Shown: positions 13,685 to 40,886 of the stretch, one piece after another
How the letters are laid out: each line of letters starts with the position of its first letter
Position numbering within the stretch: the first letter of the stretch is position 1
Source: a virus
Lineage: Duplodnaviria > Caudoviricetes
IMG/VR virus record: IMGVR_UViG_3300014205_000004
Coordinates: 60,497 to 124,496 of that record
Strand: one strand, 5' to 3'
DNA length: 64,000 nucleotides
Position numbers and translations under genes: made by a program
Notes under the pieces: model-generated
Told to the model about the DNA's origin: nothing
Database searches by the model: none
What the model saw: the letters and a program-made list of their open reading frames with translations, nothing else

Positions 13685-14338
13685 TTGTCACAAGCACTGG
13701 CACCTAACCACGTACGGATCCTCTCGGGTGGCTTCGCTTATGCGTCGCGCAACCCGCAGCCGACCATGTCCGTGGCTACGAAGAATTACCTCAGTGCCGG
13801 TGGAGTGAAGGAAGAGGATCTGCTCTACCTCAGCTACCCGTTGGTCCACGAAGGCACCAACAACAACGGTGACGAGTTCACCGCCGAAGAGATGAAAGCC
13901 TCGTACAAGACGCTGGTTGGCACGGTGGTCGACAAGGACCACAACATGAGCGTCGATGCCATCTGTGGTAAGAACTACGAAGCCGAGTACGTGACGGAGT
14001 CCGGCAAAGGCATCATCAACGTCGACGCGTATGTCTACGCCAACCTCTACCCGGACCTCGAAATCAAGATCCTGGACGGGACCATCAACGCGGTCTCGAT
14101 GGAGTGCTTCTTCGCGCGTTCCGAGCAGGTTGCTCTTCGCCGCCGGCGACTCCACGACATCCAGTTCATTGGCTCTGGCCTCGTCCGTATTCCTGGAGAC
14201 CCCCAGGCCCTGATCAACACCGACGAGCTGGCGGGTGAGACACAGAGTGGTCTCGTCACGCCTGGCCGCACGCAAGCAGACCGCCGCCGCTTTGCAGCGA
14301 TTGCCGCGGCTGTCATCGCCCTCCAGGAGGTTGCCTAA
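13685..14338 (+). CDS. putative prohead maturation protease
   Basis: N.NGD.F, DKDH, VSMEC, F.G.GLV..P.D..A pattern; lies between portal and capsid; start uncertain. Confidence 0.65.
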   Translation: MSQALAPNHVRILSGGFAYASRNPQPTMSVATKNYLSAGGVKEEDLLYLSYPLVHEGTNNNGDEFTAEEMKASYKTLVGTVVDKDHNMSVDAICGKNYEAEYVTESGKGIINVDAYVYANLYPDLEIKILDGTINAVSMECFFARSEQVALRRRRLHDIQFIGSGLVRIPGDPQALINTDELAGETQSGLVTPGRTQADRRRFAAIAAAVIALQEVA

Positions 14339-15552
14339 TGCCCGAACTCAACGAATCCAACGAACTGCTGTCCCCCGACGAGATGCGGACGTACCTGGCC
14401 ATGGCCAAGGAACTGATCACGCTGGAGCGCGTGGAGGCGGAGAACGCCAGCCGGCCGCGCTACGCGGATGCGGCGCGCATGCGCTTCCCTGTCTACACGG
14501 CAGAACTGGCTGTCGCTTCGAAGGTGTTCTACGACAACGCCAATGAAACGCACAAGGCCGTCTACTCCGCAGAACAGTGGGAAAACATCGGTAACGTTAT
14601 CAGTGCTGCACTCGGGTACACCAATGCGGCACACAACGAAGAAGAAGATGTTAATCTGGTCTTGCAGGCCATGGTTTTGGTGCGTGAGCTTGTAGCCCGT
14701 GAGGCTATCGATGGCGCACCCGACTCCACTTGGAAACTCAGTGACCTGGTCTACTGTCTGCAGCTTCTCTGCTCGCTCAAGTGGCAGGAGGAGTGGGACG
14801 TCTACTTCCAGGAAGAAATGGCCGAAGCCAGCGTTTCCGAAGAAGAAACCACCGCGACGGACACCGTCGAAATCATCACTGCCACGGAAGGTGAAGAAGA
14901 CATGGCAATTTCTGACGACGATCTGGCAAAAATTGCCGAGGTCAACAAGGCGTCGAACGAGGAGCTCAAGCAGTCCCTCGCCGACAACACCGCGGCCCTC
15001 CTGGCTGGCCTGAAGGAAATCCTCTCGGCCGCTGCTCCGGTCGCTCCGGTTGTTGCTTCCACGGAAGTCGAAGCCGAAGTCGAAGCCCCGGTCGTCGAAG
15101 CCCAGGGCCAGGCCGAAGCGGCCTTCCCGCCGGCCGACGACAAGAAGGACGAAGAGGACGACGAGGAAGACGACAAGGATTCCAAGGCGTCCGCCCCGGT
15201 CGCTCCGGTCGTCGCCACGAACCTGACCCCTGCTGAGCGCGCTGGTCGCGCTGCTGAACTCGCCCTTGACCAGGAAGCCGAAGCCGCCAAGGCCGAAGCT
15301 GCCGATCGTCTCGAAGCGAACGTCGGTGGGGGTGGCGGTGCTGCCAGCCTCGGCACCCTCGGTACGGCTTCGTTCCGCCTCTGGGACCCGGCCGATGTCG
15401 ACAAGGTCCTCTCGGCTCAGCGCGAAAGCGTGACTGCCGGCCTCACGAAGCGCCTCAAGGGCACGGCCATCGCCGTTGCAAACGGCGGCGGTCCCAAGCG
15501 CGACGCGTCCGAGTACGCCGAAGCGTTCATCGCTCTCCTTTCCCGCAACTAA
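14338..15552 (+). CDS. putative scaffolding protein
   Basis: Acidic, Ala/Glu-rich low-complexity protein between protease and capsid genes. Confidence 0.55.
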   Translation: MPELNESNELLSPDEMRTYLAMAKELITLERVEAENASRPRYADAARMRFPVYTAELAVASKVFYDNANETHKAVYSAEQWENIGNVISAALGYTNAAHNEEEDVNLVLQAMVLVRELVAREAIDGAPDSTWKLSDLVYCLQLLCSLKWQEEWDVYFQEEMAEASVSEEETTATDTVEIITATEGEEDMAISDDDLAKIAEVNKASNEELKQSLADNTAALLAGLKEILSAAAPVAPVVASTEVEAEVEAPVVEAQGQAEAAFPPADDKKDEEDDEEDDKDSKASAPVAPVVATNLTPAERAGRAAELALDQEAEAAKAEAADRLEANVGGGGGAASLGTLGTASFRLWDPADVDKVLSAQRESVTAGLTKRLKGTAIAVANGGGPKRDASEYAEAFIALLSRN

Positions 15553-15593
15553 GACCTGCGGGCCAGTCACCCCGTCCATAGGAGGACACACAA

Positions 15594-16076
15594 ATGGCCG
15601 AACTCGGCGTCGCACAGGGCATTTCCGCCCAGAAGTTTGAGGTCCTGGACCACAAGGGGCTGAACGCGTCCACGTTCAAGTGCGCGTCCCTGTGCAGCCG
15701 GGGTGACCTCGTCTACATCTCGGCCGCGGGTGTTGTCACCATCGGCACGACCGGCCTCGGTGCCAATGCCCGGTACGCCGGCTTCATCGACACCAATGTC
15801 ATCACCCAGGCTGACCTTGACGTCCGCGTCATCGGCCAGCACGGCGACTACGCTGCCCAGACCACGGGCGTCGTGTCCGTCTGGCAGGAGGGCGAGTTCC
15901 GCGTCTCCAACGTTAGCGGTGTCATCGGCGACAACGTGGCCGTTTACCCGGCCGCGAACGGTGCCCTCTCGGCGTCCCAGACGGGTTCCGACAAGGCGGT
16001 TGGCTTCTCGATCACCGGCAACGGTGGCGTCTCGGGCAAGCCGATCACCATCCGCATCAGCAACTACAACGCCTAA
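15594..16076 (+). CDS. putative head decoration/cement protein
   Basis: Strong RBS; small Gly-rich beta protein directly before the major capsid. Confidence 0.6.
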   Translation: MAELGVAQGISAQKFEVLDHKGLNASTFKCASLCSRGDLVYISAAGVVTIGTTGLGANARYAGFIDTNVITQADLDVRVIGQHGDYAAQTTGVVSVWQEGEFRVSNVSGVIGDNVAVYPAANGALSASQTGSDKAVGFSITGNGGVSGKPITIRISNYNA

Positions 16077-16121
16077 ACCGTAAGGCGAGAGACCACCAAA
16101 CCTAAGCAGGAGAACCAAGAA

Positions 16122-17102
16122 ATGCCCAACGCAGGAAACCGTGGCCTCTCCCTCGCGGACAAGCAGGCGCTGTTCGCGGAGGCCAAGGACACGCTCAGTG
16201 CCAGCGAGTTCCAGAATGTTCTGGCCACCGCTGCCCTCGTCCCGATCGCCGAGCAGGTGATTGAGACCTCGATCGTCCGGAAGCTCTTCCAGACGGACCG
16301 CTTCAGCCAGGGTGCAACGATTCCCTACACGCTGAAGACCCGGATGAACGCTGCCGCGATCATCCCCAAGTTCGGCATGGCTCCGTCCATGATCGTTCGG
16401 CAGAACCGCATCCAGGTCGAGCCGTACATCATCAGCCACAAGCACGAGATCAACCTCATCGACATCGAGGACGCGAACTACAACGTGGTCGCGGACTCGC
16501 TCGAAGACGCCGGCAAGGAAGTTGAGATCAAGGAAGACCAGGAAATCCTGCGCCTCCTCTCGACCTACGCCCCGGACGCTGGTGGTGGTTACCCCTCCAC
16601 GACCGAGACCATTACGGTCACTGCCGGTCCGGGCGGTCAGGGCACCATGCTCAGCGCGAACGTCTTCCGCGTCGGCTCCTCGCAGACCGCCCCTGCGGGC
16701 GGTGTCGCTGGCGATCCGACCATCCAGAACGTCCAGGTCATGCAGTCGCACCTTCGGGAAATCGGCTACGAGCCTGACCAGGTCCTGACCAGCCCGTGGG
16801 GCATGGGCAAGTTCAACGGCCAGGAGCTCTTCCTTCACGCCGACAAGCGCGGCAACAGCCGCACCCTCGATACCGGCATGGTCACCGACAGCCTCGGCGT
16901 CAAGTGGACCTGGAACCGCCTGGTACCGCGCAAGTCCATCTACATCATGGACACCGGTGAGCTCGCCCGCTGGGTGGAGCGCAACGGCCTGTCCATCAAG
17001 ACCAGCGAACGCGACCTCATGGCCGAGTGGTTCATGTGGGAGCGGGCTTGCCCCTTCCTCCGGAACGCCAACGCGTACGGTCGCATCATCTTCAACACCT
17101 AA
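16122..17102 (+). CDS. major capsid protein (probably HK97 fold)
   Basis: 326 aa; strong RBS; highly biased codons; synteny; followed by a terminator. Confidence 0.7.
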   Translation: MPNAGNRGLSLADKQALFAEAKDTLSASEFQNVLATAALVPIAEQVIETSIVRKLFQTDRFSQGATIPYTLKTRMNAAAIIPKFGMAPSMIVRQNRIQVEPYIISHKHEINLIDIEDANYNVVADSLEDAGKEVEIKEDQEILRLLSTYAPDAGGGYPSTTETITVTAGPGGQGTMLSANVFRVGSSQTAPAGGVAGDPTIQNVQVMQSHLREIGYEPDQVLTSPWGMGKFNGQELFLHADKRGNSRTLDTGMVTDSLGVKWTWNRLVPRKSIYIMDTGELARWVERNGLSIKTSERDLMAEWFMWERACPFLRNANAYGRIIFNT

Positions 17103-17126
17103 ACCGAGGTCTTCGGTCAGAACCCC

Positions 17127-17157
17127 AAGAGGGTGGGCATACCGCCCACCCTCTTTG
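17127..17157 (+). terminator. putative terminator after the capsid gene
   Basis: AAGAGGGTGGGC/GCCCACCCTCTT 12-bp stem. Confidence 0.65.
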
Positions 17158-17178
17158 CATAGGGAAAGGGTCCACCAC

Positions 17179-17370
17179 ATGTCCGCCAATGCGGCCGGCA
17201 AGACCACCATCACGACAGGCTTCTCGCGCATCGCCCGCAGCCAGAAGTCGAGCTTCGCTTCGAAGGCCGACTGCGACTGCCTCTGCCACCAGGGAGCGGC
17301 TTCGCACCTTGAGCCGTGCGTGTGCGTGAGTACCTCTGAAACAGCTCAGAACACGATTCTACAGGGGTAA
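17179..17370 (+). CDS. small Cys/His-rich protein
   Basis: CDCLCH...H..PCVC; RBS upstream. Confidence 0.5.
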   Translation: MSANAAGKTTITTGFSRIARSQKSSFASKADCDCLCHQGAASHLEPCVCVSTSETAQNTILQG

Positions 17371-17376
17371 TGTACG

Positions 17377-18006
17377 ATGGCTGACAAAGCGGTCATGGAC
17401 CTGGTTGTAGACCTCAAGTCGGACCTTCATTCGGTCCTTCAGGTCTACGTGCCTGAGAAGCTCATGGCCGTCGAGGCTGACCTTCAAACGTGCACGGCGT
17501 GGGAACAGAACTGGTACCAGCGCCCGCCCGCAATCATCTACAAGAACGGCGTTCCCATCTCCAGTGGGTTCGACATCGACTACGACACGGGCACGCTGTT
17601 CTTCTCGGTCGACCTCCTGGTGACTGACCGTATTACGGCGGAGTTCTTCTACTCGCCCTTCACGGATGAGCAGCTGACGACATTCCTGGAGCGGGCGTGC
17701 GCCGAGGTCGGTGCCAAGCTCAGCCTCGCGGTAGACACCCAGGCCATCCCGGACGCACTCCAGGCGCTCGTTGTCGACTTCGCGTACGTGCGCACCTTCA
17801 CCGCGGTCATGGCCGAGACGGCGATGTACCACAAGTGGATCCGCGACGGTGTCGAGGTACACAAGGACATGGTCACCAAGAACCATCAGATGGTCCTCGC
17901 CGAGAAGCGTGCCGGTATGACCGACAGCATCAACAGGCTCAGGCTCTCGGGCTTGAGCGGCGGTCAGGTAGTTGCCACCACGGCGACTGCTCAAGACCTC
18001 CTCTAA
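17377..18006 (+). CDS. putative head-tail adaptor
   Basis: Synteny; FTDEQLTTFL motif typical of connector proteins. Confidence 0.55.
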   Translation: MADKAVMDLVVDLKSDLHSVLQVYVPEKLMAVEADLQTCTAWEQNWYQRPPAIIYKNGVPISSGFDIDYDTGTLFFSVDLLVTDRITAEFFYSPFTDEQLTTFLERACAEVGAKLSLAVDTQAIPDALQALVVDFAYVRTFTAVMAETAMYHKWIRDGVEVHKDMVTKNHQMVLAEKRAGMTDSINRLRLSGLSGGQVVATTATAQDLL

Positions 18007-18017
18007 GGAAAAGGCAA

Positions 18018-18341
18018 ATGACATCAGAGGAACGGATTCAGCGCGGGATGGCCCCGAGCTTCTACCCGTACGGCAACGTGCCGGGGCCAGACTACGACTT
18101 CACCGACTACGCAGACTACGTCGACCACCTTGTCGTCAACCTGGGCGGTCCGCTGCGCATCTTCCGTGCGGCGATGCTCGACCTGGTCAGCATGATCTGC
18201 GTGAACCCCGAGCAGAAGAAGGCCGCGCGAGACGTCGTCTTCTCGAAGTTCAAGGAGAACGCTGAACTGCTCGAAGCGTGGTGCAGGTTCTACGGCTTCG
18301 ACGACGAGACCGTGCTCTGCGCCATCAAAGGGTTGGACTAG
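18018..18341 (+). CDS. hypothetical protein
   Basis: AGGA RBS and ATG 18018. Confidence 0.6.
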   Translation: MTSEERIQRGMAPSFYPYGNVPGPDYDFTDYADYVDHLVVNLGGPLRIFRAAMLDLVSMICVNPEQKKAARDVVFSKFKENAELLEAWCRFYGFDDETVLCAIKGLD

Positions 18342-18719
18342 ATGTACCCGGATGGTCGCGGCATGTCGTTCGACACGGACGAGCAGACGTTCGTGTTCGA
18401 CATTGGCCGAGTGCGCCAGCCTGCGGCGAACCAGAAGTTCCGCGAGGAGACCGTCCTCGCAGGCGTCCGGGGCTCCATCTTCTCAGCCATCTTCACACGC
18501 AAGCAGGTAACGCCGGCTGGCCCTATCTCCGAAGCATCCTGGGTGGCGCACGTGCGTCTTCCCGTGACCTTCGAGCCACGCACCGGTGACCGAATCATCA
18601 ACGTCCGTGTCGCGCGCACAGGTCGTGCGGGCCGGTGGGAGACCCTCCGCATCGTGTTCGTCCAGCAGATGGGCGAGCGCGATTACCACCTGTGGCTCAA
18701 GGAAGACGTGGTCAAGTAA
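18342..18719 (+). CDS. putative head-closure/stopper protein
   Basis: Synteny; P.TGDRI motif; beta-rich 125 aa. Confidence 0.5.
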   Translation: MYPDGRGMSFDTDEQTFVFDIGRVRQPAANQKFREETVLAGVRGSIFSAIFTRKQVTPAGPISEASWVAHVRLPVTFEPRTGDRIINVRVARTGRAGRWETLRIVFVQQMGERDYHLWLKEDVVK

Positions 18720-19711
18720 TGAGGTACCTGAGTCAGAGCGAAGTGTTCGAGGTCGTGCGTTCTTCGATCGGCACGCTGCGGGCCCGCGGCCAAATCCCTC
18801 AGCTGATGGAGCAGGCGTTCTACAACCACGCCCAGACTCTCGTGCGTATCATGGAACCGGTTACCCCGTCCAGCGCTCGCGGCAAGTACGTCGTCAGGAA
18901 GCAGGGCAACGTGGCCGGCGCTGACGGACGTGCCATCAAAGGCAGGCAGGTAGCTGCCATCCAGATCATCAACACCGACCCTGCCTTCGGCACCTACCTC
19001 ACGGGTTCCGCAACCAAGAACGTCGAAAAACCGTCTGGACCGTACAAAATCTTCCCGAAGAAGTCTGGCGGATTCCTCAAGATCGGGGGCCCCAACATAT
19101 TCGCCCGCGGCGTCGCTGGCGAGGCCAGGACGCCCACGCGCCCGAGCTGGAGGCCGACCGACCTTTTCGCAGATCAGACAAAGAACAAGCGCGGTGTGCT
19201 CTCTGGCGGTGTACCTATTCGCGACGGCGAAGCCCTTGGTCCTGAGTCCGGTGTGTTTCGTTCCGTAACCAATATCACCTACGGCCGCGGAAAGATGAAC
19301 GTGCGGACAGGGAAGCAAGTCAAGTCCTTCAGGTTCAGCACCAGAAAGGGATCGTCAAAGACAGGCCGTCCGTTCTCGCCGGGCGACATGGTGGTCAGAT
19401 ACGTCTCGAAGCACCCTGGCCGGCTGCCGGCCTTTGCTCTCCGCGACATGATCCTGTCGTTCGGAGAGTTTGAAGCCGACGGGGGACTGCCGGGAGCCGT
19501 TCTCGAATCTTTGCAGAAGTACATGGAAGCCGGCGAGCCGCGCATGGTGATGCAGGAACACGTACCTGTCGGCAACAGACGTATGGACGTGCCTGGCTTT
19601 GAGCACCGATTCGCTGGCTATCGCCGCGCGGGCGGAACGTTCATGCCTCTCGTGGACGAAATGGTAATCGTCCTGCACGGGCGTCTCAAGATTGGAAGGA
19701 CCAGGAAGTAA
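18719..19711 (+). CDS. basic neck/tail-completion protein
   Basis: TAATG-coupled on both sides; very basic; position of HK97 gp10-like genes. Confidence 0.5.
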   Translation: MRYLSQSEVFEVVRSSIGTLRARGQIPQLMEQAFYNHAQTLVRIMEPVTPSSARGKYVVRKQGNVAGADGRAIKGRQVAAIQIINTDPAFGTYLTGSATKNVEKPSGPYKIFPKKSGGFLKIGGPNIFARGVAGEARTPTRPSWRPTDLFADQTKNKRGVLSGGVPIRDGEALGPESGVFRSVTNITYGRGKMNVRTGKQVKSFRFSTRKGSSKTGRPFSPGDMVVRYVSKHPGRLPAFALRDMILSFGEFEADGGLPGAVLESLQKYMEAGEPRMVMQEHVPVGNRRMDVPGFEHRFAGYRRAGGTFMPLVDEMVIVLHGRLKIGRTRK

Positions 19712-20272: not shown

Positions 20273-20301
20273 GCCCACCGAGACACCCGGTGGGCATTTT
20301 T
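20273..20301 (+). terminator. terminator-like hairpin
   Basis: GCCCACCG...CGGTGGGC-ATTTTT. Confidence 0.55.
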
Positions 20302-20324
20302 CACGTTCCGGAGGAACACCCAAA

Positions 20325-21197
20325 ATGGCAAAAGACCCCTCTTCGGTAGCACGAGCGGGCGCGTTCAAGAAGACTCACGGCGGTCCTGGCCTGATCTTCC
20401 TGGGCGACTTCGGCACGACCTTCCCGGACCATCCGGACGACGTCATTGACTTCGCCGGCGGTGTCTCGCAGTTCACCCCCAAGGCGGGCTGGACGGCGCT
20501 CGGTATGACGAGCGGTGGCGTGACCGTCACCCGCGGCTTCGAGAAGGTCGACCGTATGGCCGACCAGACGTACGGCCCGTTCGACTTCCGCCCCACCCAG
20601 TGGACCACCCAGGTCTCCACCGAACTCGTGCAGACGGACCTCGCGGCCCTCAAGTACGCCTGGCACGGCAATGCGCCGGCTGTCACGGCGGCGGGTACGA
20701 ACAGCTTGATCGCCACGAACGCGGTTACCATCAACGACACCGTCATCGACGTCACGACCAGCGATGGTGCGGACTTCAGTGTCGGCGACATTCTCACCGT
20801 TGGCGAAGGTGCGTCGCAGGAGTACGTCAAGGTCCTCTCGAAGGTCTCGGACGCGCTTACCCTCACCACCGGCACGATCTACGCACACGCCATTGGCGAA
20901 CCGGTCCGCAGGCTCGAAGTGCAGGCTGCTGGCTTCGGCACGCGGCGCATCGTGGAGCCGCAGCTCGTGGCAATCATCTGCCCGCTCGTCGAAGAGACGG
21001 CCGGCGTGATTACGCAGGGCTACCGCATGTACGCCATCCGCAAGGCCAAGCTCGACGCCGGCCAGCGCGCCATCAACCACAGCAACACCCAGGACTGGAC
21101 CATCCCGATCAGCTTCATGGCCTTCCCGGACCTCGATGTCGCGGATATGGACAACGACACCATGACCGTCATCGACATGGTGGTGGCGACGCCCTAA
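20325..21197 (+). CDS. major tail (tube) protein
   Basis: GGAGG RBS; W..LG.T.GGV motif typical of siphoviral tube proteins; upstream of chaperone and tape measure. Confidence 0.75.
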   Translation: MAKDPSSVARAGAFKKTHGGPGLIFLGDFGTTFPDHPDDVIDFAGGVSQFTPKAGWTALGMTSGGVTVTRGFEKVDRMADQTYGPFDFRPTQWTTQVSTELVQTDLAALKYAWHGNAPAVTAAGTNSLIATNAVTINDTVIDVTTSDGADFSVGDILTVGEGASQEYVKVLSKVSDALTLTTGTIYAHAIGEPVRRLEVQAAGFGTRRIVEPQLVAIICPLVEETAGVITQGYRMYAIRKAKLDAGQRAINHSNTQDWTIPISFMAFPDLDVADMDNDTMTVIDMVVATP

Positions 21198-21753: not shown

Positions 21754-22139
21754 AAGACATCCTGGACGACCGAAAAGGTCTGACACCGCGGCAACTCGTG
21801 GTCCTCTGCCAGGAGATCGACTACCAGGACGACATCAGTCTGGCAACACAGCTGCAAGCTGGCGCGATGAGCGTAACAGCCCTCGCCAGCGTCATGGCGA
21901 TGATCATGGGCGGGACGTCAGAAGGCGTCGACCCGATGAATCCAGTACACAACATGCTGGAGCTCGTCCAGACCCTACTTACAGGTGAGAAGAGTCAAGC
22001 CCAGCTAGAAGCTCAAGCGATGAGTGAACGGGAGAAAGAACTCCAGGCCGAACTTCTGGACCACCCGATGTTCCAGAAGTTCCGTGCGGGCCAGCGAGGA
22101 GAGAAGTACCCGTGGCATCTCGAATCTTCCAGCAAATAG
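21642..22139 (+). CDS. tail assembly chaperone -1 frameshift extension (GT-like)
   Basis: The -1 frame is open from the slippery heptamer through the 21798-22139 ORF. Confidence 0.75.
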   Translation, partial: PFIPGYDPEYRPTTREDDRFTEDRLIARAAVRANLSLEDILDDRKGLTPRQLVVLCQEIDYQDDISLATQLQAGAMSVTALASVMAMIMGGTSEGVDPMNPVHNMLELVQTLLTGEKSQAQLEAQAMSEREKELQAELLDHPMFQKFRAGQRGEKYPWHLESSSK

Positions 22140-25100
22140 TCATTGCCCTTACCGGGGAGACGGACGACCTCGAAGGGAAAATGGAAGCGGTCGACAAGCG
22201 CCTTGCGGCGCTGTCGTCCCGCGCCGCTGCACGGGAAAAGCAGTACCAGGACCAGCTCACCGCTCTCGCAAACAAGCGTCTCGACCTTGAAGCAAAGAGG
22301 GCCCGCCTGGAGAAGGCCGACATCGCGCAGATGGCGCACTCGGCCGACCAGCGCATCAAGACCAACAACAAGATCGCCCAGACCGAAAGCCGCATCAACG
22401 AGCTGATCGCCAAGCGTACCGAGCTTGACATGCGTGCCACGGATGCACGCAATAACAGTGCCCGCAAGCAGACGAAAATAGACGGCACCTCGCGTAACCT
22501 CGCCGCCAAAGGCGAGGTCCTCGAAACCCGGAAGGTCAAGCTCGACTTTGACCTCGAAAAGGCTGGCCGCGAGGTCGACAGGCTCTTCGATCGTGTTGAA
22601 GCAAACTTTATCAGGATGCGTGGCGCGCTCGACCGTGACAAAGGGCAGTCTGCTTCCGCCTTCCTCGCCTTCGACAAGGCGGATAAGGCTGCCGAAGCAG
22701 TCGAGGAGCTAGTTGAAGGCACTGAACGCTACAAGAAGGTCCTCGCCAGCATCAATGCGATGCCAGATGAGGACAAGCGGAATGCAGCCCTCTCCAGGTG
22801 GTCAGAGATTGCTGAGAAGGCCACGCGCATCCAGATTGCCCGCAATGCTGCCTTGGACAAATGGACGGCTTCGAACGACGCCGTAACGATCGCCGAAAAG
22901 GCGCTGGCGGATGCGGAAGCTGCTCGCAGTAAGCAAGGGCAGCAGCGCACCGACGCACAAATCCGTGCGGAGCAGATGCTGCTCAACCTCGTCAAAGAGG
23001 AAGTCAACATCGGTATGCGGGCGACCGAGATCGAAGTCGCTGGGGAACGGGCACGGCAGAACAAGCTAAGCGCTCTCGCACTCGAAGCTCGGCAGCTGCG
23101 GGACATTGCCGCTGCCCGTCAGCGCGTCGACGACCTGCTCTCCGCTCGCAGAGGAGACAAAGCCGCTTATCAGTCTGGCCTCAACAACATCGATGCTAAA
23201 GACGTCAAAGCAGCGACTGAGTACAACGAAGCCATCGCAAAGCTGGATCGCGAGATTGCCACGCTCATCCCTCAGGCCGATCGCCTGGAGGCTGAGTACA
23301 AAGCAGCGATGGACGCTATCGCCCACCACACCAAGCTGGCAGAGAACGAGTTCGACAAGTTCAACAAGAAAGCCGGTAAGGCGTCCGGCGATAGTGCATT
23401 CGCTGGTGGTGTGAAGAAGGGAACCAGCCAGGCTTTCGAGCGCGTCTTTGGCGTACCGTTCAGCACCCTCAAAGACGTAATCACGAGCCCGGCCAAGCTG
23501 CTTGCCGGGCTTGGAGCCGGTATTGGCTTCATGGGGACCGGGCTGATCTTCAAGATGTTCACAGCCCCGTTCAAACTAGCGACTCTTGCCGCGGGATCCT
23601 TCTTCAAGGTCATGAACTCTGGCGTTGGCCAGATGAAGCAGTGGATTGGCCAGGCGCACGCATGGAACATGGAGATTCTCCAGTTCAGCGTGCAGACGGG
23701 CGTCGCAGTGAAAGACGCCTCCGAGTTCGTCTCGGTCTTCAAGGTCCTCGGACTGAACACGATGTTCACGTCCATCGGTATCGGTGGTCTCTCGAAGGAG
23801 ATTGCGGCCAACAACAAGTACCTGACGTCCATGGGTATCGCCACGCGCGACGCCAACGGTGCTCTGCGCTCTACTGCGGACGTCATCAAGGACCTCCGGA
23901 CTCAGTACCACAGCCTGAACGAAGAGGGTAAGCGCGGCTTCCTCTCAAACATCAACAACGTCCTCCCGTTCGCATCCACGCTCCTCCCGATGATCACGAT
24001 GGACCCGAAGATCATCGACAGTCTCCGGGAGATGAACGTCATCCTGGATGAAACAGAGCAGCGCGACATGAACCGTGTCAGCGCATCCATTTCTGCCCTG
24101 CAGATGACAGGCCAGGGCCTGGCGAACACGTTCGCCACGGCGGTCTCGCCGGCTATCTCCGACTTCGCGAACATCATCATTGACCTCGTCCAGCGTCACA
24201 TGGGCAGCATCCAGAACTTCTTCCGGATGATCTCCGACAACGTCCAGGACCTGCTCTTCATGCTTGGCCTGTTTGACCAGATGACCGATCGCATCGGCGG
24301 GTTCTCGGATGCGATGACGTTGGGCGCTGAGAGCGGCGCGGGCATGATGGACCCGTACGCCGAGAGCATCAATCAGACCGACGCGGCCCTCAAGACGCTC
24401 CGCGAAAGCGTCGACGACACCAATGCGTTGATGGAGGACCAGCAGGACATCGTTGATGAACTCCGTGACTCGATGGAAGGTGAGCTCGAAGTCATCAACG
24501 ACCTCAAAGAAGGCGTGAAGGATGCGCTCGAAGCGCAGATGAAGCCTCTCGAAGACAGCATCAAGCTGCTCGAAGAGCGCAAGGAGAAGTGGGAAGAAGA
24601 CAAGGAAGCGGCTAGCCGGGCGATCGACGCTGAGATTGGTCTCCTGGAACTCCAGAACCAGATCATCGAGCGCAACATGCAGAACGCCACGCGTCCGCTG
24701 CGCTCACGCCTGACGAGTCTCAACCAGCAGAAAGATGCCCTGGACAAGGACAACGGCACCAAGGCGCTCAAGGACCAGATCGACGCAATCAAGAAGGCGA
24801 GCGAGGCGACCGACCGCGCGCTGCGCAACTCTTCGAAGGGCGCGAAGGACGCGCTGCAGGCGCAGATCAAAGCCATTCAGCGCGCGCAGGACGAGTACGA
24901 GCGCGGCCTGGAAGACCAGAAGAAGCTGCTCGAAGACCAAATCACTGCAATCGAAGCCGTCAGTGACGCAGCCGAAGCCGCGGCCAAAGAGCAGGAGTAC
25001 TGGGACCGGCGCGCCTACCTCATGGGGCAGAGCCTCCTCGCACAGGCGGAAGCTCGGGCCCGCGCGCTGAACGACCGTCAGTCGCGTAGCCGGCAGGACG

Positions 25101-27058
25101 GCGAGTCCGACATCGACTACCAGCTGCGTATGATGCAGCTGAGCGAAGCGAACAACATCGACAACCTGCAGCGCCAGGAAGAACTCGCCGGCCTTGAGCG
25201 CCAGCGTAGCCTCGACCTGTTGAACGCTGCTCGCGAAGCTCAGATCAACCTCATCAAGGACGAGATTGACGAGATTGAGCGCCTCGCTGACCTCCGCAAG
25301 GCGGCAGACGATGCTGCCATCGATGCTATCCAGCAACAGATTGATCTCATCGAGCAGCGCGAGCAGGCTGCGTCAGATGCGGCCGCGGCGCGCAAGGAAG
25401 CCGAAGACGACGCGATTGCTGCGCTCGAAGCGCAGATCGACGCCATCGAGGAAATCTCCGACGCGCAGCAGCAGGCTATTGAAGACCAGATCACTGCAGT
25501 CGAGGACCAGATTGAGGCAGCTGAGAACGCCGCCGAGGCACAGGTCGACGCGAACGAAGCAGTCCTGGAGTCCTGGAAGCGCCTGAAGCAGGCCAAGGAA
25601 GACTACTACACGTACTACGCCGGCAACCCTGAAGCGGAGGGCCTGGCCAACCAGAAGATTGCGAAAGAGCAGGAACTGCTCGAAGTCAACAAGCAGATCG
25701 CTGCGGGTGTTGCCGGTGGGTCCGATGTCGAGTCCCTGCGCAGCCGCGCCAACTCCATCGCGAACGAAATCGCGGCTCTCGAAGCGCGCCTCATCACGAT
25801 GCAGTCCGGTGGGGTTGTTGGGGGCACGTCGCTCATCGACAAGCAGATCGACGACATCAACAAGATCAAGGACGCACAGAAGGAGGCCGCGGACCTTCGC
25901 CTAGAACAGCTGGACGATGAGGCCGAGAAGATTCGCGACATCTACGAGCCGCAAATCGAAGCCATCCAGGAGATCATCGAGGGCTACCAGGACCAGACCA
26001 AGGAGATCCAGGCCAAGATCAAGGAAATGGAGCGCGAGAAGGCGTATGCGGAAGAACTCCGCGTGGCCGAGAGCGCGCGCATCCAGAACACGAAGAAAGA
26101 ACTCGGTGAGCTCGAAGAGTCTCTCCGTAAGGCGAACACCATCGGTGGCCGGCTCGGCACGACGCTGCGCCACATCTTCATCGACCCGTTCTCGTCTCCA
26201 AAGCAGCGGGCCCTGGAAGACGCCGAGTCGGACTATCGCATTGCTAACCAGGGCAACCCCGACGCTGTGCCGTTCAGCCAGTCGCCTGTGGCCATGATCA
26301 TCCAGAACAACCCGTTCCTGAGTGACGAAAAGCCCAGCCTCGGTAAGGCGATCGGTGAGATGCTCGACCGCTCCTGGTACGAGATCAAGCCGTACATGGA
26401 GAAGTTCGGCGAGCTTATGGGTCAGGCCATCATCAAGGGGATGGGTATGGCCCTCAGCTCTGGCGGTAAGGCCTTGCTGGGCAAGTTCGACCCGACTGAC
26501 AAGAACTCGTGGTGGTACCGCTTCCCCGGTACAGCGAACAACGACTCTTGGATGGATGCCATCTTCGGTGGCGTTACGAATTACTCCGCCCCGTCTAGGC
26601 TCTTCGCCGGCCTGGCTGGCGTAATGGCCGGCAACGCTAAGGGCGACTTCGTCAGCACACCGACAATGTCGATGCTCGCGGAAGGTGGCTTCCCTGAAGC
26701 CGTCATCTCGACCGACCCGAAGTACGCCAACCGGTCACGCGCCATCCTCAGGACCTTCTTCGCGAAGGCCAACGAGACAGGGGCCACTCCCGGTATTCTG
26801 GGTATGGACAAGAGCATCTCCGGGCTTCACGGAAGCGGCCGGTCCGTAGCAGGTATTGATGCGCGCATGGGTGGCTCTCTCGCAGCGCTAGGAGCCACGA
26901 CAGGCGGAGACACGTACAACTTCTCGGTCGGCGACATCTACGCGAATACGAAAGAGGACAGCGAAGCGATCAGCCAGGCGATTACTGGCGAGTTCCGCAA
27001 GTTCATCGATTCGTTGCCGGCTCACGCGAAGGCAATGGAATTGCAGAAGGTGCGGTAA
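22112..27058 (+). CDS. tape measure protein
   Basis: 1648 aa; long helical/coiled-coil regions; hydrophobic central segment; C-terminal PT..M.AEGG.PEAVI motif; synteny. Confidence 0.9.
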   Translation: MASRIFQQIVIALTGETDDLEGKMEAVDKRLAALSSRAAAREKQYQDQLTALANKRLDLEAKRARLEKADIAQMAHSADQRIKTNNKIAQTESRINELIAKRTELDMRATDARNNSARKQTKIDGTSRNLAAKGEVLETRKVKLDFDLEKAGREVDRLFDRVEANFIRMRGALDRDKGQSASAFLAFDKADKAAEAVEELVEGTERYKKVLASINAMPDEDKRNAALSRWSEIAEKATRIQIARNAALDKWTASNDAVTIAEKALADAEAARSKQGQQRTDAQIRAEQMLLNLVKEEVNIGMRATEIEVAGERARQNKLSALALEARQLRDIAAARQRVDDLLSARRGDKAAYQSGLNNIDAKDVKAATEYNEAIAKLDREIATLIPQADRLEAEYKAAMDAIAHHTKLAENEFDKFNKKAGKASGDSAFAGGVKKGTSQAFERVFGVPFSTLKDVITSPAKLLAGLGAGIGFMGTGLIFKMFTAPFKLATLAAGSFFKVMNSGVGQMKQWIGQAHAWNMEILQFSVQTGVAVKDASEFVSVFKVLGLNTMFTSIGIGGLSKEIAANNKYLTSMGIATRDANGALRSTADVIKDLRTQYHSLNEEGKRGFLSNINNVLPFASTLLPMITMDPKIIDSLREMNVILDETEQRDMNRVSASISALQMTGQGLANTFATAVSPAISDFANIIIDLVQRHMGSIQNFFRMISDNVQDLLFMLGLFDQMTDRIGGFSDAMTLGAESGAGMMDPYAESINQTDAALKTLRESVDDTNALMEDQQDIVDELRDSMEGELEVINDLKEGVKDALEAQMKPLEDSIKLLEERKEKWEEDKEAASRAIDAEIGLLELQNQIIERNMQNATRPLRSRLTSLNQQKDALDKDNGTKALKDQIDAIKKASEATDRALRNSSKGAKDALQAQIKAIQRAQDEYERGLEDQKKLLEDQITAIEAVSDAAEAAAKEQEYWDRRAYLMGQSLLAQAEARARALNDRQSRSRQDGESDIDYQLRMMQLSEANNIDNLQRQEELAGLERQRSLDLLNAAREAQINLIKDEIDEIERLADLRKAADDAAIDAIQQQIDLIEQREQAASDAAAARKEAEDDAIAALEAQIDAIEEISDAQQQAIEDQITAVEDQIEAAENAAEAQVDANEAVLESWKRLKQAKEDYYTYYAGNPEAEGLANQKIAKEQELLEVNKQIAAGVAGGSDVESLRSRANSIANEIAALEARLITMQSGGVVGGTSLIDKQIDDINKIKDAQKEAADLRLEQLDDEAEKIRDIYEPQIEAIQEIIEGYQDQTKEIQAKIKEMEREKAYAEELRVAESARIQNTKKELGELEESLRKANTIGGRLGTTLRHIFIDPFSSPKQRALEDAESDYRIANQGNPDAVPFSQSPVAMIIQNNPFLSDEKPSLGKAIGEMLDRSWYEIKPYMEKFGELMGQAIIKGMGMALSSGGKALLGKFDPTDKNSWWYRFPGTANNDSWMDAIFGGVTNYSAPSRLFAGLAGVMAGNAKGDFVSTPTMSMLAEGGFPEAVISTDPKYANRSRAILRTFFAKANETGATPGILGMDKSISGLHGSGRSVAGIDARMGGSLAALGATTGGDTYNFSVGDIYANTKEDSEAISQAITGEFRKFIDSLPAHAKAMELQKVR

Positions 27059-36200: not shown

Positions 36201-37716
36201 TGCCGCAGACGGTACGCTCTCGTACCCGACCTTCGGCGTGCCTGGTACTGTCGCTCTCGGCGGGTGGGTGTGGTACGACCCGACCGACACTGGCCGCGTC
36301 ATGGGCGGCTTCTGGGAGACGACCGAAGCAGCGTCCTCGATCGTCTTGATGGCGAACGGCGAAGGCGGTAAGCCGGCCGTTGGCATTGTGACCAACCCCA
36401 CCAGCAACCTCGCGTCGGGTACCGTCACCGAGTGGCTGGAGAGCCCGTACTTCCCTACCGAGGGCTGGCACCGTGTTTCCGCAGTGTTCTCCGCAGGTGG
36501 GCACTCCGGGCCCAACCTTCTTTCGAATGCCGGCTTCGAGTCTGGCGACACCGCACCGGGTTCGAACTGGAACGCCAACACAGGTACTGACAGGTCGTTC
36601 TCCTTCAACGCCGACCACTCGGAAGGCGCACGGTCGTTGGAGATGACCGAAACTACGGCGTACAACACCGGCGCTATTGTCGACCAGGTCGTCTCGCTCG
36701 CTGCGGCCATTCCGGCTGGCTCGAAAATCCGGTGCAGCTTTGACCGCCGAGTTATCGCCTCTTCCAGTCACCGCTTGCTGGCTGATGTGTACGTCAAATA
36801 CCGGTACTCCGATGGCTCGGTAGGTGACTGGACGTTGCTGAAGTCGAACACGGAAAATCCACTCAGTGTCGGCTCCTTCGAGACCACTACGTTCATCTCG
36901 AACGACACGACTCTTGATGTTGTTGCACTCAAGCTCACAGTGCATATCCTCAACACCAGCAGTGCAACTACCGGCACAGTGCGCATCGACAATGTCAAAC
37001 TGTCCCTCGGTACGCGCCCGTCCCTTACCCTCTTTGTGGATGGCGTGGCTGTGGCTACGTCGATCACTCCGCAGGCGTTCCTGCACGCAGTAAACACGAA
37101 CACGTTCAAGATCGGCGGTCCTGGTACAGGCTGGGATTCTGGCACGCCTGCAGACGACGGCACGCCGGCGCGGCGCGTTCACGACTTCGGTGTGTGGTAC
37201 GGCTCAGCATCCGCAGAGACTGCTGAGAGTGCCACCCAGGAGCTCGCGCTGTACAACGGCCTCTGGCCGACGAACCAGCCGTTCTGCCTGGCCTACTGGC
37301 ACCTTGTGGCGACTGACGTGATCCCTGCTGTGGACCACACGTCGCACGGGTTCACGCTCTCACCGGTCGGCTCTCCGACCATCGAAGTCATCCAGGACTT
37401 CCTGGCAGATGTGGGCATCCGTGACCGCTTCCTTGCGATTCCTGACCCGGTCCGGTTGCCGCGTTCCCCGAATTCCGCAGCTGCTGCTGTGTCGGCCAGG
37501 ATCTTCGCTGAAGAGAACGCTTCGCAAATCAAGAAAGCGACACTCATCACTACAATTGATCCTCGAAGAGACCTCAATGAGGTTTACAGAATTCGCCTCA
37601 TCGACGCTCAAGGTGTTATAGTTACAGATGACAAGTGGGTAGTCGATGGCTGGTCTGTGGAACTTCGCGCAGGCGGTCGGATGACCCACCAGATTCGGCG
37701 GATTGAGGAGTCCTAA
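33244..37716 (+). CDS. large tail-tip protein (beta-propeller-like + hub-like + LamG-like + CBM-like regions)
   Basis: About 40-aa blade repeats in the N-terminal 620 aa; WHRVSAV...LTLFVDG LamG-like motif; NLLSNAGFE...IDNVKL CBM-like motif. Confidence 0.7.
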   Translation: MATAMTGSGEFQRAESGFFRSCESGGYLYSADVNYPADLIKSDLTTHQRVAAIALRDENPDYHHCWDIVTAGGYLYLSVHNADTTVHNIVKVDISTFTVVDSLALSSSTWFSRLIVNGTTLYVTATNGDDAATVFEIDLTTFTETDSLVLDANEAAWDGVLVGTTLYLSTRQAPARVVRVDTTTLTRIDSLTLSTGEDYALDILSDGTDLYAICAGDAVYDPVVAVKINIASFTRTSALTLDSDEWYFTYLGCAMLDGGFIYVGTYNSKIVKVQTSDMTRVGALAMYGGLSSLTVYGGSIFAVCPNVAPSRVDEILISTFTTTANAWRFGWGDGYLARGVGVLGTNFYVYTEQHSFMGGKLLKLDQVSLAVLGEYSLTEDIAYAFCVGPDGYIYITADWKLLRIDPTDMSLDASLTSSYGPIKALASDGATYLFGATDQGNVVAYSFASFVEVSSLATAESSLRGLTYGDDGNLYASAGLSPDKILKITPYPAWDGVDDLVLDTGENGVGWLAAVGGYTYVNTNAGEIVKIDQASMTRVGSLSPGGGMSSELLVHDGFLITRGSTINTVFVDLSTFTVSDTVASSSLFSEPAVLAVNAGTDTIFIAGPNYANGVAFARLEMYIGTPVSATLTIPLEALEQSVHSTHTLLTEAKSGLRVPFLTLGENWVNILHQISAAGIDTVLYPNNQDIDSAIAGEGSGEVRSRPALYRVDIRGQIIEDLSDRVISATVAGTRSEVVSRTAQIVVRNTDGLDLKTDYLMPAMIWDISGIDVVFPYGIFQGSVPRKTTTEKDRRVTLVCNDLSIHLTEKFSYPFTVPAGTNYRDALAAVWQLTKLKGNALNIPPINETLPNAFTWEPRGAFGVALNGLLQGVNFLPIYISKNDGAGLSRPREFLRDRAPDVTYTSDPLVDGTYLITGNFDEEDDNTEQKNEVIVEVNDPLRDQFWETYYIENALSPIVIPYRHGFTGFSATDYWEAAGLTAESLVDAADGTLSYPTFGVPGTVALGGWVWYDPTDTGRVMGGFWETTEAASSIVLMANGEGGKPAVGIVTNPTSNLASGTVTEWLESPYFPTEGWHRVSAVFSAGGHSGPNLLSNAGFESGDTAPGSNWNANTGTDRSFSFNADHSEGARSLEMTETTAYNTGAIVDQVVSLAAAIPAGSKIRCSFDRRVIASSSHRLLADVYVKYRYSDGSVGDWTLLKSNTENPLSVGSFETTTFISNDTTLDVVALKLTVHILNTSSATTGTVRIDNVKLSLGTRPSLTLFVDGVAVATSITPQAFLHAVNTNTFKIGGPGTGWDSGTPADDGTPARRVHDFGVWYGSASAETAESATQELALYNGLWPTNQPFCLAYWHLVATDVIPAVDHTSHGFTLSPVGSPTIEVIQDFLADVGIRDRFLAIPDPVRLPRSPNSAAAAVSARIFAEENASQIKKATLITTIDPRRDLNEVYRIRLIDAQGVIVTDDKWVVDGWSVELRAGGRMTHQIRRIEES

Positions 37717-38322
37717 CTGAGCACCGAAGACGACACTCCACACAAGTTTCTGGAGACGATGCGTGACCTGAGTACTGGCTGGGCGGACCAGTCAGCCGCT
37801 AACGCGGTGTTCTTTGAGGCACGCGTGGTGGAAGTCAATGGCTCCCTCGCCCGCATTGAAGCAGAGGGCCAGGTGAGGGCACAGTACTGCCCCACGCTCG
37901 CTCCGTACCTTCCTACCCTGGATGACCAGGTTCTTGTGGCGAACACGCCAAGTGGTGCAGTCATTCTTGGTGCAATCAATCGCACCGAAGAAGTCAGCGG
38001 CACAACCGCGGTGTATGCCCCTCTCGATTCACCAGCCTTTACCGGCTCCCCGACCGCCCCACTCGCACCTGCCGACGATGACTCAGACCGCATCGCCACG
38101 ACCGAGTTCGTGAACGACTGGGCCCAGGCCATCGTGCACGGCATCGAGTTCACCGACGGGTACATCACGTTCCCGTACGCCCGCATGGTCCCTGGGTCCG
38201 GCGGAACCTTCACGACGTTCCCGGCCGACGGTGCAGCCTTGACTGCCAAGGCTGCCCTTCAGGTGAAGATCTACTTCGGCGGGACGCTCTACACAGCCAA
38301 AATCCCCATCTACAACACGTAG
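37717..38322 (+). CDS. tail tip/fibre-associated protein
   Basis: YAPLDSPAFTGSPTAP...IATTEFV phage fibre motif; in-frame CTG at 37717 sits 6 nt after GAGGAG (alternative ATG at 37759). Confidence 0.7.
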   Translation: MSTEDDTPHKFLETMRDLSTGWADQSAANAVFFEARVVEVNGSLARIEAEGQVRAQYCPTLAPYLPTLDDQVLVANTPSGAVILGAINRTEEVSGTTAVYAPLDSPAFTGSPTAPLAPADDDSDRIATTEFVNDWAQAIVHGIEFTDGYITFPYARMVPGSGGTFTTFPADGAALTAKAALQVKIYFGGTLYTAKIPIYNT

Positions 38323-38336
38323 CTCCAGGAGAACGT

Positions 38337-40886
38337 ATGGAACCGATCGCCTGTGCCCGTAAAGGGTGTGACATCGTCTTTACCCCGAAGGAACCCAAGA
38401 ATCGATTTCACGATCCTGTCTGTGCGGACGAAGACTACAACGAGCGCAAGCGCGAGAAGCGCCTCAAGAAGCACGCGACTGAGACGGCCGGCGAGCAAGG
38501 TGACATCTTCGAGATGAAGAAGATCCGCTGCTCTCGCTATGGCTGCGAGGAGCTCTTCGTACCGAAGTCCATCAACCACCAGTACCACTCCGACGTCTGC
38601 GCCAGCCAAGCGAAGAGCGACAAGAAGCTGCTGCGGCAGATTGAGGACGTGGACCCCGCGGTTGTGCGGGCTGCTGAGTCGGAACTGGTGAAGGAAGCGG
38701 AGCGCCAGCTGGGTGTGGTCCAGCGTCGGCTGCTGAAGGAAGAGTCCCGGTCAGCCATCACCCTCCAGCGCATCGATGAGTACCTGAGCGGGAACCCGAA
38801 GCCGCGTCATGCGCTCTACCCGGTTCGCTCTCTCAAGAAAGCCGGCAACGGCGCAGCGACGGACTGCCACTTCGTGTTCTCGGATCCCCAGGGCGGGAAG
38901 TGGAACTCGGGCATCGGGCTGCAGGCCCTCCTCGAAGCGTACCTGCCGGCAATTGCGGAGAAGATTATCCGCTGCGTGGAGGTCCAGCGCTTCGAAGGGC
39001 CCGTAGACACGTTCTTCTTCCACATGGTCGGCGACATCGTCGAAGGCTGCTTGCCGGCCGGCACACCTGTGCTCACTCCAACCGGTCCGAAACACATCCA
39101 AGACTTAAAACCCGGAGACTCTGTGTGGGCCCACGGGCCTGATGGCTTCAAGCAGCGCGTTGTGACTGCAGCGGCTATGACTGGCATAAAGCCGATTCAC
39201 ACCGTAGTTAGCACGGAGCGCACTCTGCGTGCTAGCCCTGAACACCCCATCCTTGTTCGCCGCGACGTAGAAGTGAGCGGGCATGCATCTCCGAATCGTC
39301 ACCGCTACGAGGTCACACACAGTTACGTTGCCGCGCAGGACGTCCGCGCTGGGGACTACCTGTGCATTGTCGACAGCGTGCCGGATGTGGGGTCCACTTC
39401 GACCCCAACTCGGGACGCGTCGGTAGAGCTGATGGAGTTCCTCGGCTTCTATGTGGGCGACGGATGCCTCACACGTAACGCCAACGGAGAACCAAACGGA
39501 GTTTTCCTCTCGCACGGCGCTGACGCAAGCTACATGGCTCACTACGTCGACAACTGCAAGACGCTGTTCTCGAAGCAAAAGAACTCGCAAGACACTTCAG
39601 CAGTGGCGGTTGCGCCAAAACCCTCACAAGCATCTGGGACCCGGTTCGGTTCCGTAGCAGCAGCCAACGAGATCCTCGCGCTCGGATTCGCTGGAGACTC
39701 CCGAACTAAGCGGGTACCTGCCTGGGTGTTCACACTTACCAGGGAACTACGGCTGGCCTTCCTCCGCGGCTACTTGGACTCGGACGGCTCAGTGAACAAG
39801 CTAGGTCAGGTCACCTTCGCGACCGTTAATCGCGGACTTATTGAAGACATCCAGGCGCTCTGCCAGGGCTTGGGAATTCTTGTCTCGCGCATCAGGACGC
39901 ACGAACGAGTGTGCCCGCTGCCTCAAGGAGGCGAGCAGCAGTCGACAATCTTCGTTATCAACTGCGGATCACCCGACCTCAACCAGGAGATTGGCAGCCA
40001 CACCCCACAGTATCTGGACCGTTGGGCCCAGCGTAGTGGGACTCGCAGGACACGCAACTACGCTGTCACGAGCAAGGGGCGCATCCCGGCCGCACCGATC
40101 GGCTGCAGATATAGCTTGGTGAAGTCGAATGACGTTGGCCTAGCAGAACCGACATACAACATCTCAGTCGAAGGACTTGAGACGTTCATCGCTGACGGCG
40201 TCGTGACACATAACTGCGCCATTTACCCAGGCCAGCGCCAACACCTCGACCGCTTCCAGAATGGAGACTCCGCGGTCGACCAGGTCCTGACCATGGCTGA
40301 CGCTATCTGCGACATCCTCATCGCCAGGCTGCGGCCCTACTTCAAGAACTTCGTCTTCGCCAACGCGTTCGGCAACCACGGGCGCACCGGTAACAAGCTG
40401 GACCCGGCACTCGACAAAGATAACCGCGACCGATTGGTGGCCGAGATCGTCAAGCGCATGTGCAGCCACATGGACATCCAGTGGATCATTCCCGAGCGCG
40501 ATCGCTATGTGGTCGAGTCGATGGGTTACAGCATTGGCGGCATCCACGGGCATCAGCTGGGTAACAAGAGCAGCCTCAACGCCATGGAGCTTCCGATCCT
40601 CCGCTGGGACGCGTTGCGCCACTTCGGGACCAACCTGGACGGCCTCGTCATGGGCCATCGGCATCACCCGGCTTCGCTCGACATGAACGGCATCGAAGTC
40701 ATCCAGAACGGTGCGCTAGACGGTGGTTCTGATTGGTTCACGAACACCACGGGTGCGTGGGCTCAGCCGAGCCAGGAACTGTTCTTCGTGAGCGAGGAGT
40801 TCTTCATCGGGACGCGCCGGCGGCTCTACGTGACACCAAAAACGCCGCGGGCCCGAGCAGTTTCTCAGTGGTCATCCGCGGCGTAA
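38337..40886 (+). CDS. calcineurin-like metallophosphoesterase with N-terminal Cys-rich repeats, intein-containing
   Basis: FSDPQ, GDIVEG, GNHGR, IHGH, MGHRH motifs; two C...GC...F.P...H...C repeats. Confidence 0.85.
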   Translation: MEPIACARKGCDIVFTPKEPKNRFHDPVCADEDYNERKREKRLKKHATETAGEQGDIFEMKKIRCSRYGCEELFVPKSINHQYHSDVCASQAKSDKKLLRQIEDVDPAVVRAAESELVKEAERQLGVVQRRLLKEESRSAITLQRIDEYLSGNPKPRHALYPVRSLKKAGNGAATDCHFVFSDPQGGKWNSGIGLQALLEAYLPAIAEKIIRCVEVQRFEGPVDTFFFHMVGDIVEGCLPAGTPVLTPTGPKHIQDLKPGDSVWAHGPDGFKQRVVTAAAMTGIKPIHTVVSTERTLRASPEHPILVRRDVEVSGHASPNRHRYEVTHSYVAAQDVRAGDYLCIVDSVPDVGSTSTPTRDASVELMEFLGFYVGDGCLTRNANGEPNGVFLSHGADASYMAHYVDNCKTLFSKQKNSQDTSAVAVAPKPSQASGTRFGSVAAANEILALGFAGDSRTKRVPAWVFTLTRELRLAFLRGYLDSDGSVNKLGQVTFATVNRGLIEDIQALCQGLGILVSRIRTHERVCPLPQGGEQQSTIFVINCGSPDLNQEIGSHTPQYLDRWAQRSGTRRTRNYAVTSKGRIPAAPIGCRYSLVKSNDVGLAEPTYNISVEGLETFIADGVVTHNCAIYPGQRQHLDRFQNGDSAVDQVLTMADAICDILIARLRPYFKNFVFANAFGNHGRTGNKLDPALDKDNRDRLVAEIVKRMCSHMDIQWIIPERDRYVVESMGYSIGGIHGHQLGNKSSLNAMELPILRWDALRHFGTNLDGLVMGHRHHPASLDMNGIEVIQNGALDGGSDWFTNTTGAWAQPSQELFFVSEEFFIGTRRRLYVTPKTPRARAVSQWSSAA
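39048..40214 (+). mobile_element. intein with LAGLIDADG-type homing endonuclease (389 aa)
   Basis: Starts CLPAGTPV; block B SPEHPIL; LGFYVGDG and FLRGYLDSDG endonuclease motifs; ends TYNISVEG..TFIADGVVTHN followed by Cys+1. Confidence 0.93.

Follow-up and report, generated by a model that had tools for sequence, protein, structure and literature searches.

The window analysed here, a stretch of 64,000 nucleotides that constitutes the right half (60497-124496) of the 124,496-bp virus record IMGVR_UViG_3300014205_000004 (hereafter G000), carries on its + strand a block of head and tail genes (13685-40886) in which not a single gene ends in the stop codon TGA. Positions below are those of the window, and loci elsewhere are given as record coordinates prefixed with L001. 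The record has a guanine-plus-cytosine (GC) content of 60.6% and a 124-bp direct repeat at its two ends, and we therefore take G000 to be a complete genome. Using a home-made codon-usage caller over the whole 124,496 bp, we identified 183 genes with a coding density of 90% under table 11 (the standard code), 85 of which end in TGA, 51 in TAA and 47 in TAG. The replication and nucleotide-metabolism genes occupy a long leftward arm, and the rightward arm starts with small early-type genes and closes with the virion module, in which large tail-tip and fibre genes reach 38322. Throughout, 'late' is a label given by gene function and synteny and not by measured expression. We found no close isolated phage for G000, as isolated phages gave remote matches only.

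PHROG and Pfam matches identify the portal (9324-11435, +), the major capsid (16122-17102, +), the major tail protein (20325-21197, +) and the tape measure (22112-27058, +), the first three of which end in TAA. The block at 13685-40886 comprises 20 + strand genes (head genes, tail genes, two chaperone-like genes, the tape measure, tail-tip/fibre genes and an exonuclease) with orthologues in the related genome G001 introduced below, and our own gene calls give it 13 TAA and 7 TAG stops, exactly as a preliminary description of this DNA had read them, along with the non-TGA stop of the portal. The junctions within the block are also as described there, with couplings of the type TAATG (14338, 18719 and 19711) and TAGATG (18341 and 33243), to which we add TAAATG (27058), and none is ATGA. 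The TGA-free run really begins at 12585, with a nucleoside 2-deoxyribosyltransferase-like (Ndt-like) gene (TAG) and a 179-amino-acid (aa) open reading frame (ORF; TAA) at 12585-13600 (+) that bring it to 22 genes on the + strand (14 TAA, 8 TAG), and the genome's longest stretch without a TGA stop counts 23 genes. By our own calls, three small genes that all end in TAG and the portal that follows them (8208-11435, +) are likewise free of TGA. The last gene of the run, an exonuclease/phosphoesterase of 849 aa (38337-40886, +) that contains an intein (Hint_2, Intein_splicing and LAGLIDADG_3 domains), is not a virion gene, although it lies inside the TGA-free run. A comparison block on the - strand (40963-47008), with genes for a dCMP deaminase, an HNH endonuclease, RNase H-like and RuvC-like proteins, an ATPase, a dNMP kinase and an SbcD-like protein, has TGA at the end of 9 of its 11 genes, mostly within ATGA overlaps; the preliminary description had the nine TGA stops right but counted 12 genes.

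To determine if this pattern holds against the rest of the genome, we compared stop codon usage in the late run with that in all other genes, the genome-wide Fisher test that had been proposed for it, and found that none of the 22 late genes but 85 of the 161 other genes end in TGA (p=6e-7), while permutation of the longest non-TGA run yielded p~1e-5. TGA triplets are equally dense off-frame in the two gene sets (19.96 per 1000 in late genes versus 19.57 in other genes), indicating that composition is not the cause and that the bias sits at the stop position. Gene length is excluded as a simple cause as well, since 10 of the 22 long genes (≥300 aa) outside the late set end in TGA (a hand count from the gene table). 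TAA is enriched in the late genes (14/22 versus 37/161 elsewhere), with the major capsid and the major tail gene among those ending in TAA. Moreover, the non-TAA stops divide into 8 TAG and 0 TGA in the late genes versus 39 TAG and 50 TGA elsewhere (p=0.002), which shows that the bias is aimed at TGA and is not a mere preference for TAA; the preliminary description had rightly suspected that such a preference explains the TAG stops poorly. Low-copy classes are TGA-free too, including the portal, the candidate small and large terminase subunits (TerS and TerL), the tape measure, the chaperones and the tail-tip genes. Thus, the stop-position bias is real and looks selected, with TAG absorbing the GC pressure.

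TAG is common throughout G000, where it makes up 26% of all stops, an unusually high share. The TAG:TGA ratio of 39:50 outside the late genes and outside ATGA overlaps compares with 2:23, 1:37, 5:29 and 10:30 among the genes outside the late set in the first four of the GC-matched control phages that follow.

As controls we used six phages of 58-64.5% GC (BcepNazgul, YuA, D3, L5, phiC31 and Bcep781), whose genes were called with the same caller and whose structural blocks were taken from public annotation. TGA accounts for 43-71% of the stops in these structural blocks (pooled, 81/141 or 57%) and for 73% in the remainder of the control genomes, and the pooled late genes differ sharply from the 0/22 of G000 (p=9e-8). 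The longest non-TGA runs in the controls extend over 2-10 genes, versus 23 in G000. TAA in the controls is concentrated in the capsid and tail-tube genes (8/11), with portal, terminase and tape measure genes mostly ending in TGA, a pattern that corresponds to the known graded, expression-linked effect (PMC8789281).

To learn whether the avoidance is inherited, we ran capsid and portal profiles against viral contigs and against contigs of metagenomes and genomes, which gave a single relative, G001 (IMG/VR UViG_3300013121_000004; 105.9 kb, 45% GC, about 85% complete), which is syntenic with G000 and has a portal 47-48% and a capsid 40% identical to those of G000; three further capsid homologues (P0001-P0003) are identical at ~50%. 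The syntenic late block of G001 also comprises 22 genes, of which 19 end in TAA, 3 in TAG and none in TGA, versus 36 TGA stops in the 124 genes elsewhere (p=0.002; run permutation p=0.007). As a guard against spurious small ORFs from the home-made caller, we limited the test to conserved genes and found that, among G000 genes with a G001 orthologue, TGA ends 1 of 19 late and 15 of 20 non-late genes (p=1e-5). Where a gene ends in TAA in G001 and differs in G000, it ends in TAG in all six late cases and in TGA in all nine non-late cases (p=2e-4). Protein identity between the two genomes is 31-57%, and silent sites are therefore saturated. The stops differ in 8 of the 19 late orthologue pairs, 7 of them exchanges between TAA and TAG, and the sole TGA on the G000 side lies in the gene at 11410-11619. 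Since late stops thus turn over and TGA has nevertheless appeared only there, inertia from a low-GC ancestor is excluded. Judged from these two genomes' sequences, TGA avoidance in late genes is an inherited trait of the lineage that spans a 15-point difference in GC content.

Three TGA-ended genes lie inside the late region, at 11410-12588 (+): a 69-aa gene, a Fic/DOC gene and a 47-aa ORF. The 69-aa gene (11410-11619, +), which follows the portal, is conserved, with an orthologue in G001. The Fic/DOC gene (11691-12314, +) is preceded by the upstream word ACTGAGTAC and a promoter-like site (11627-11656), and it probably has its own early-type promoter, because the same word is common to four early + strand genes. 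No late promoter motif emerged from an exact 9-mer search, which did find early-type upstream words. A 12-bp hairpin followed by a T-run, resembling a terminator (13650-13680, +), stands directly before the first gene (13685) of the 20-gene run and probably marks a transcription-unit boundary. Further TGA stops belong to an M23 peptidase that is a candidate lysin (7480-8211, +), where the stop lies inside an ATGA overlap, and to two - strand genes of unassigned function (53635-54063 and 54077-56026). The preliminary description was correct in listing these three, the first as the endolysin, as ending in TGA, and it placed the latter two in a second virion block, a role that no family match backs.

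How can the avoidance be so complete? We favour, with middling confidence, purifying selection that acts throughout the lineage to keep UGA out of the stops of packaging and virion genes. Of the three stops UGA is the most prone to leak, and strongly expressed genes prefer TAA (PMC8789281). Packaging and virion genes end only in UAA or UAG, the less leaky stops that are both read by RF1, and the remaining genes follow GC pressure to UGA, often chained through ATGA overlaps. Late stops that changed while the lineage gained GC went from TAA to TAG, and those of other genes from TAA to TGA. The driver may be the cost of UGA read-through, or of slow termination by RF2 only, for proteins that assemble together. 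This cost is probably higher in some host, or under infection conditions, in which termination at UGA works comparatively badly. Neither recoding nor a suppressor tRNA of the phage would be required. A C at the +4 position after the stop is also rarer in late genes (2/22 versus 51/161, p=0.04), which fits selection for termination efficiency. The reason for the absolute effect would be either that the hosts terminate poorly at UGA or that infection alters UGA decoding through a factor common to both phages.

Several points weigh against selection on termination as the whole account. The lineage sample consists of two genomes, and the +4 effect is weak and not present in G001. Neither a protein-atlas search with the portal nor a tblastn search with the DNA polymerase gave a usable host signal, so that leakiness of UGA in the host and its RF1/RF2 balance enter as assumptions. 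In phiC31, 9 of 34 early genes end in TAG, yet 12 of 17 late genes end in TGA, showing that a TAG-tolerant host is not sufficient. The GC-matched phages have 43-71% of TGA in structural genes and keep TAA mainly for capsid and tail tube; general expression selection does not predict an all-or-none, class-wide pattern, and a lineage- or host-specific addition must be invoked.

The preliminary description had proposed that decoding of UGA changes with the stage of infection, either through a late suppressor tRNA (a tRNA-like gene with a UCA anticodon) or through loss or inhibition of RF2, so that late genes are kept free of TGA and early genes tolerate it. In its favour, the avoidance is class-wide and all-or-none and includes low-copy proteins, which timing predicts better than graded expression does, and RF1 can read every late stop. 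The proposed tRNA-like gene does exist as an element at 4042-4120 (+), whose minimum-energy fold (-32.3 kcal/mol) is a cloverleaf with a 7-bp acceptor stem, a discriminator base, an encoded CCA, an anticodon loop GGUUCAGA that contains UCA, and the T-loop GGCAGGU. We determined its origin with a covariance model built from the element (R1), which matches the tRNA-Arg(UCU) of G001 at 41 bits (E=2e-9) and gives no other match, not even to the tRNA-Met of G001. The alignment of the element with this tRNA-Arg, located at L008:6755-6830 (-) in G001 record coordinates, shows that the stems are preserved through compensatory changes and that the anticodon loop has gone from CUUCUAA to GGUUCAGA, position 36 having changed from U to A to give UCA and one nucleotide having been added. 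By its sequence the element is thus derived from a tRNA, and as a working tRNA it is putative only. The AGA share of arginine codons is 28.7% in G001 versus 2.9% in G000, indicating that tRNA-Arg(UCU) lost its use in the GC-rich branch, and this collapse would free the tRNA for another role. Precedents exist as well: the UGA suppressor of phage T4 maps to tRNA-Arg (Kao & McClain 1977, J Biol Chem 252:8254, as cited in PMC12807605), and recoded phages frequently carry suppressor tRNAs of non-canonical form that detection programs overlook (Borges et al., 10.1101/2021.08.26.457843).

The structure and distribution of the element argue against this proposal. Its anticodon loop has 8 nt and is not a 7-nt loop with U33, its T-loop, derived from UUCGAGU in G001, has lost the universal T54, psi55 and A58, its D-loop is atypical, and the fold has a z-score of only -1.85, with 11 of 200 shuffled sequences folding equally well. 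No canonical tRNA was called in G000, and ARAGORN left the element uncalled at default, -ps and -ps80 settings, even where the threshold lets through 184 spurious tRNAs in the genome; Rfam gave no tRNA match to it at E<=10. An exact-word scan of viral contigs for its anticodon arm produced no match. No UCA element occurs in the available 85% of the G001 genome, which has a normal tRNA-Arg(UCU), not even in the stretch just upstream of the portal that is the element's place in G000, and G001 avoids TGA all the same. The proposed link between the UCA element and the avoidance is not supported, this result having been named beforehand as refuting it.

Further results from G000 speak against a general late-phase problem with UGA. 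The genome contains neither in-frame TGA codons nor a signal of code 4: every candidate code-4 frame that fills an uncalled gap scores negative for coding, and translation with table 11 leaves the late ORFs unbroken (1648, 1304 and 1490 aa among them) with gaps of <=89 nt. No gene with an RF-1 domain was found in G000, nor was a tryptophanyl-tRNA synthetase (TrpRS) gene noted, although no search aimed at it was made. When conserved genes of unassigned function were compared with Pfam and PHROG, nothing related to translation came up. Back-up stops are not in excess after TGA, the median extension being 26 codons after TGA versus 24 after TAG and 35 after TAA. Finally, two genes that are likely to be expressed late, the M23 peptidase and the conserved 69-aa gene behind the portal, have TGA stops. 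We therefore regard a stage-specific UGA switch as doubtful, and the preliminary description is not supported in this part.

Two read-through fusions were considered and rejected. The gene at 53635-54063 is in frame with the giant ORF downstream of it, but the extension is not among the long ones, and we infer a second in-frame stop after its TGA. The Fic/DOC gene shares its frame with the Ndt-like gene over 90 codons, yet the coding score of the extension is explained by the Ndt-like gene on its own (34.6 for the Fic read-through extension, 58.3 for the Ndt-like gene), and the linker therefore does not appear to be coding-like.

Could an ordinary expression-level preference for TAA, with nothing specific to the lineage, produce the pattern? 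The enrichment of TAA in late genes and its known use in highly expressed genes (PMC8789281) speak for it, and the controls shift in the same direction, with less TGA in late genes than in the rest (57% versus 73%) and capsid and tail-tube genes that mostly end in TAA. This preference leaves the 8:0 ratio of TAG to TGA among the non-TAA late stops unaccounted for, it does not extend to the low-copy terminase, portal, tape measure and chaperone genes that are also TGA-free, and in none of the six controls does it reduce TGA to zero. Codon bias per codon likewise fails to separate the late genes from the others (0.30 versus 0.28, p=0.79). On balance we consider it unlikely.

Quite improbable, in our view, is the further-reaching possibility that G000 is part-way to TGA recoding, or already runs a late-phase UGA-decoding switch with the UCA element as a working suppressor. 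The lineage would first have purged TGA from its late stops, the step that is seen in both genomes; AGA would then have become rare in the GC-rich branch, and the redundant tRNA-Arg(UCU) would have mutated to UCA with an expanded loop; the resulting RNA would suppress UGA or shift the frame there; and TGA-ended early and host proteins would be harmed or remodelled late in infection, with the virion genes immune.

A by-product of gene architecture, in which short early genes chained by ATGA are forced to end in TGA and late genes with spacers are not, is very improbable and largely refuted. It is true that 35 of the 85 TGA stops sit in ATGA or GTGA overlaps, none of them in the late block, where couplings are TAATG, TAGATG or TAAATG. 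Yet the contrast persists when stops forced by ATGA or GTGA are removed (0/22 late versus 50/126 TGA, p=5e-5) and when the comparison is confined to genes free of overlap with the next gene downstream (0/16 versus 31/87 TGA, p=0.0024). Moreover, ATGA does occur within the structural blocks of the controls (3-4 of ~20 genes), which suggests that its absence here is more likely a consequence than a cause of TGA avoidance. Chance, or stops that lag behind from a low-GC, TAA-rich ancestor, is hardly credible: the 45% GC genome G001 does have 19 TAA among its 22 late stops, but the run permutation (p~1e-5), the GC content at third codon positions of the late genes, which is no lower than elsewhere in the genome, the saturated silent sites and the turnover of late stops all stand against it, and the direction of change (6/6 to TAG in late genes versus 9/9 to TGA in other genes) refutes it.

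Other features of the two genomes complete the picture of the lineage. The candidate small and large terminase genes, each with a TAG stop, lie ~55 kb from the virion module (L001:16615-18908, +) in a small + strand island within the leftward arm, and G001 has kept them, the large subunit at 50% identity. Their assignment rests on one weak PHROG match, Pfam and PDB sequence searches having given none, and nothing related in sequence to the candidate TerL was found among solved structures. The segment between the portal and the head genes at 11691-13600 (Fic/DOC gene, 47-aa ORF, Ndt-like gene and 179-aa ORF) is an insertion that G001 does not have. The G001 orthologue of the exonuclease/phosphoesterase is 452 aa long, lies on the opposite strand and is without the intein. 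A second strong hairpin with a T-run, terminator-like on both strands, is found at 20273-20295, ahead of the major tail gene. The family A DNA polymerase is split over two adjacent genes (445 and 414 aa, with an ATGA overlap; L001:4880-7458, -), and the same split occurs in G001. A giant gene of 2026-2062 aa (47440-53520) is without match to any PHROG or Pfam family, and the portion of the genome that is missing from G001 corresponds to its region. A large serine integrase gene (57328-58860; PHROG 95, E=1.6e-91) suggests a temperate lifestyle, and no prophage related to G000 was detected among 185,579 species-representative genomes.

The pattern has counterparts in known systems but coincides with none of them. 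It shares with the expression-linked stop bias (Ho & Hurst 2021, PMC8789281) selection at the stop position, TAA in abundant proteins and UGA as the leakiest stop, and the six controls display this bias in its mild form. In G000, by contrast, avoidance is absolute over 22 consecutive genes, low-copy ones included, it is heritable within one lineage, and TAG, which is usually disfavoured, serves as the GC-rich substitute. Like the gut phages recoded to code 4 or 15 (Borges et al., 10.1101/2021.08.26.457843), G000 exhibits an early/late split in the use of one stop, with late genes confined to the other two, and it possesses a tRNA-derived UCA element, such tRNAs being noted in that work as often non-canonical. 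Unlike these phages, it has no in-frame TGA, a 90% coding density under the standard code and no RF-1 domain gene that we could find, and it is GC-rich, with TGA plentiful outside the late genes; in the standard-code relatives described in the same study, it is low GC that has removed TGA across the whole genome (for example, 4/146 genes). The T4 UGA suppressor (cited in PMC12807605) is alike in linking the reading of UGA to a phage tRNA-Arg gene, in G000 through the putative UCA element. The T4 suppressor is a mutant, obtained in the laboratory, of a tRNA that is otherwise normal, unlike the G000 element with its extra loop nucleotide and without T54-psi55-C56...A58. The T4 UGA suppressor of Kao and McClain reportedly arose by the same change in a tRNA-Arg anticodon (UCU to UCA).

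Selection on stop codons is usually regarded as weak and graded and as acting in the most expressed genes, and here it is all-or-none for a functional class in a GC-rich phage that uses the standard code. The pattern is conserved over a large shift in GC content, with TAG as the escape from GC pressure. Should the phage be shown to drive a change in how UGA is decoded, code switching would extend to GC-rich environmental phages. The lineage is a natural test case for the cost of UGA read-through to proteins that assemble into particles, and for the question of whether the purging of late-gene stops precedes the suppressor tRNAs and the recoding of gut phages.

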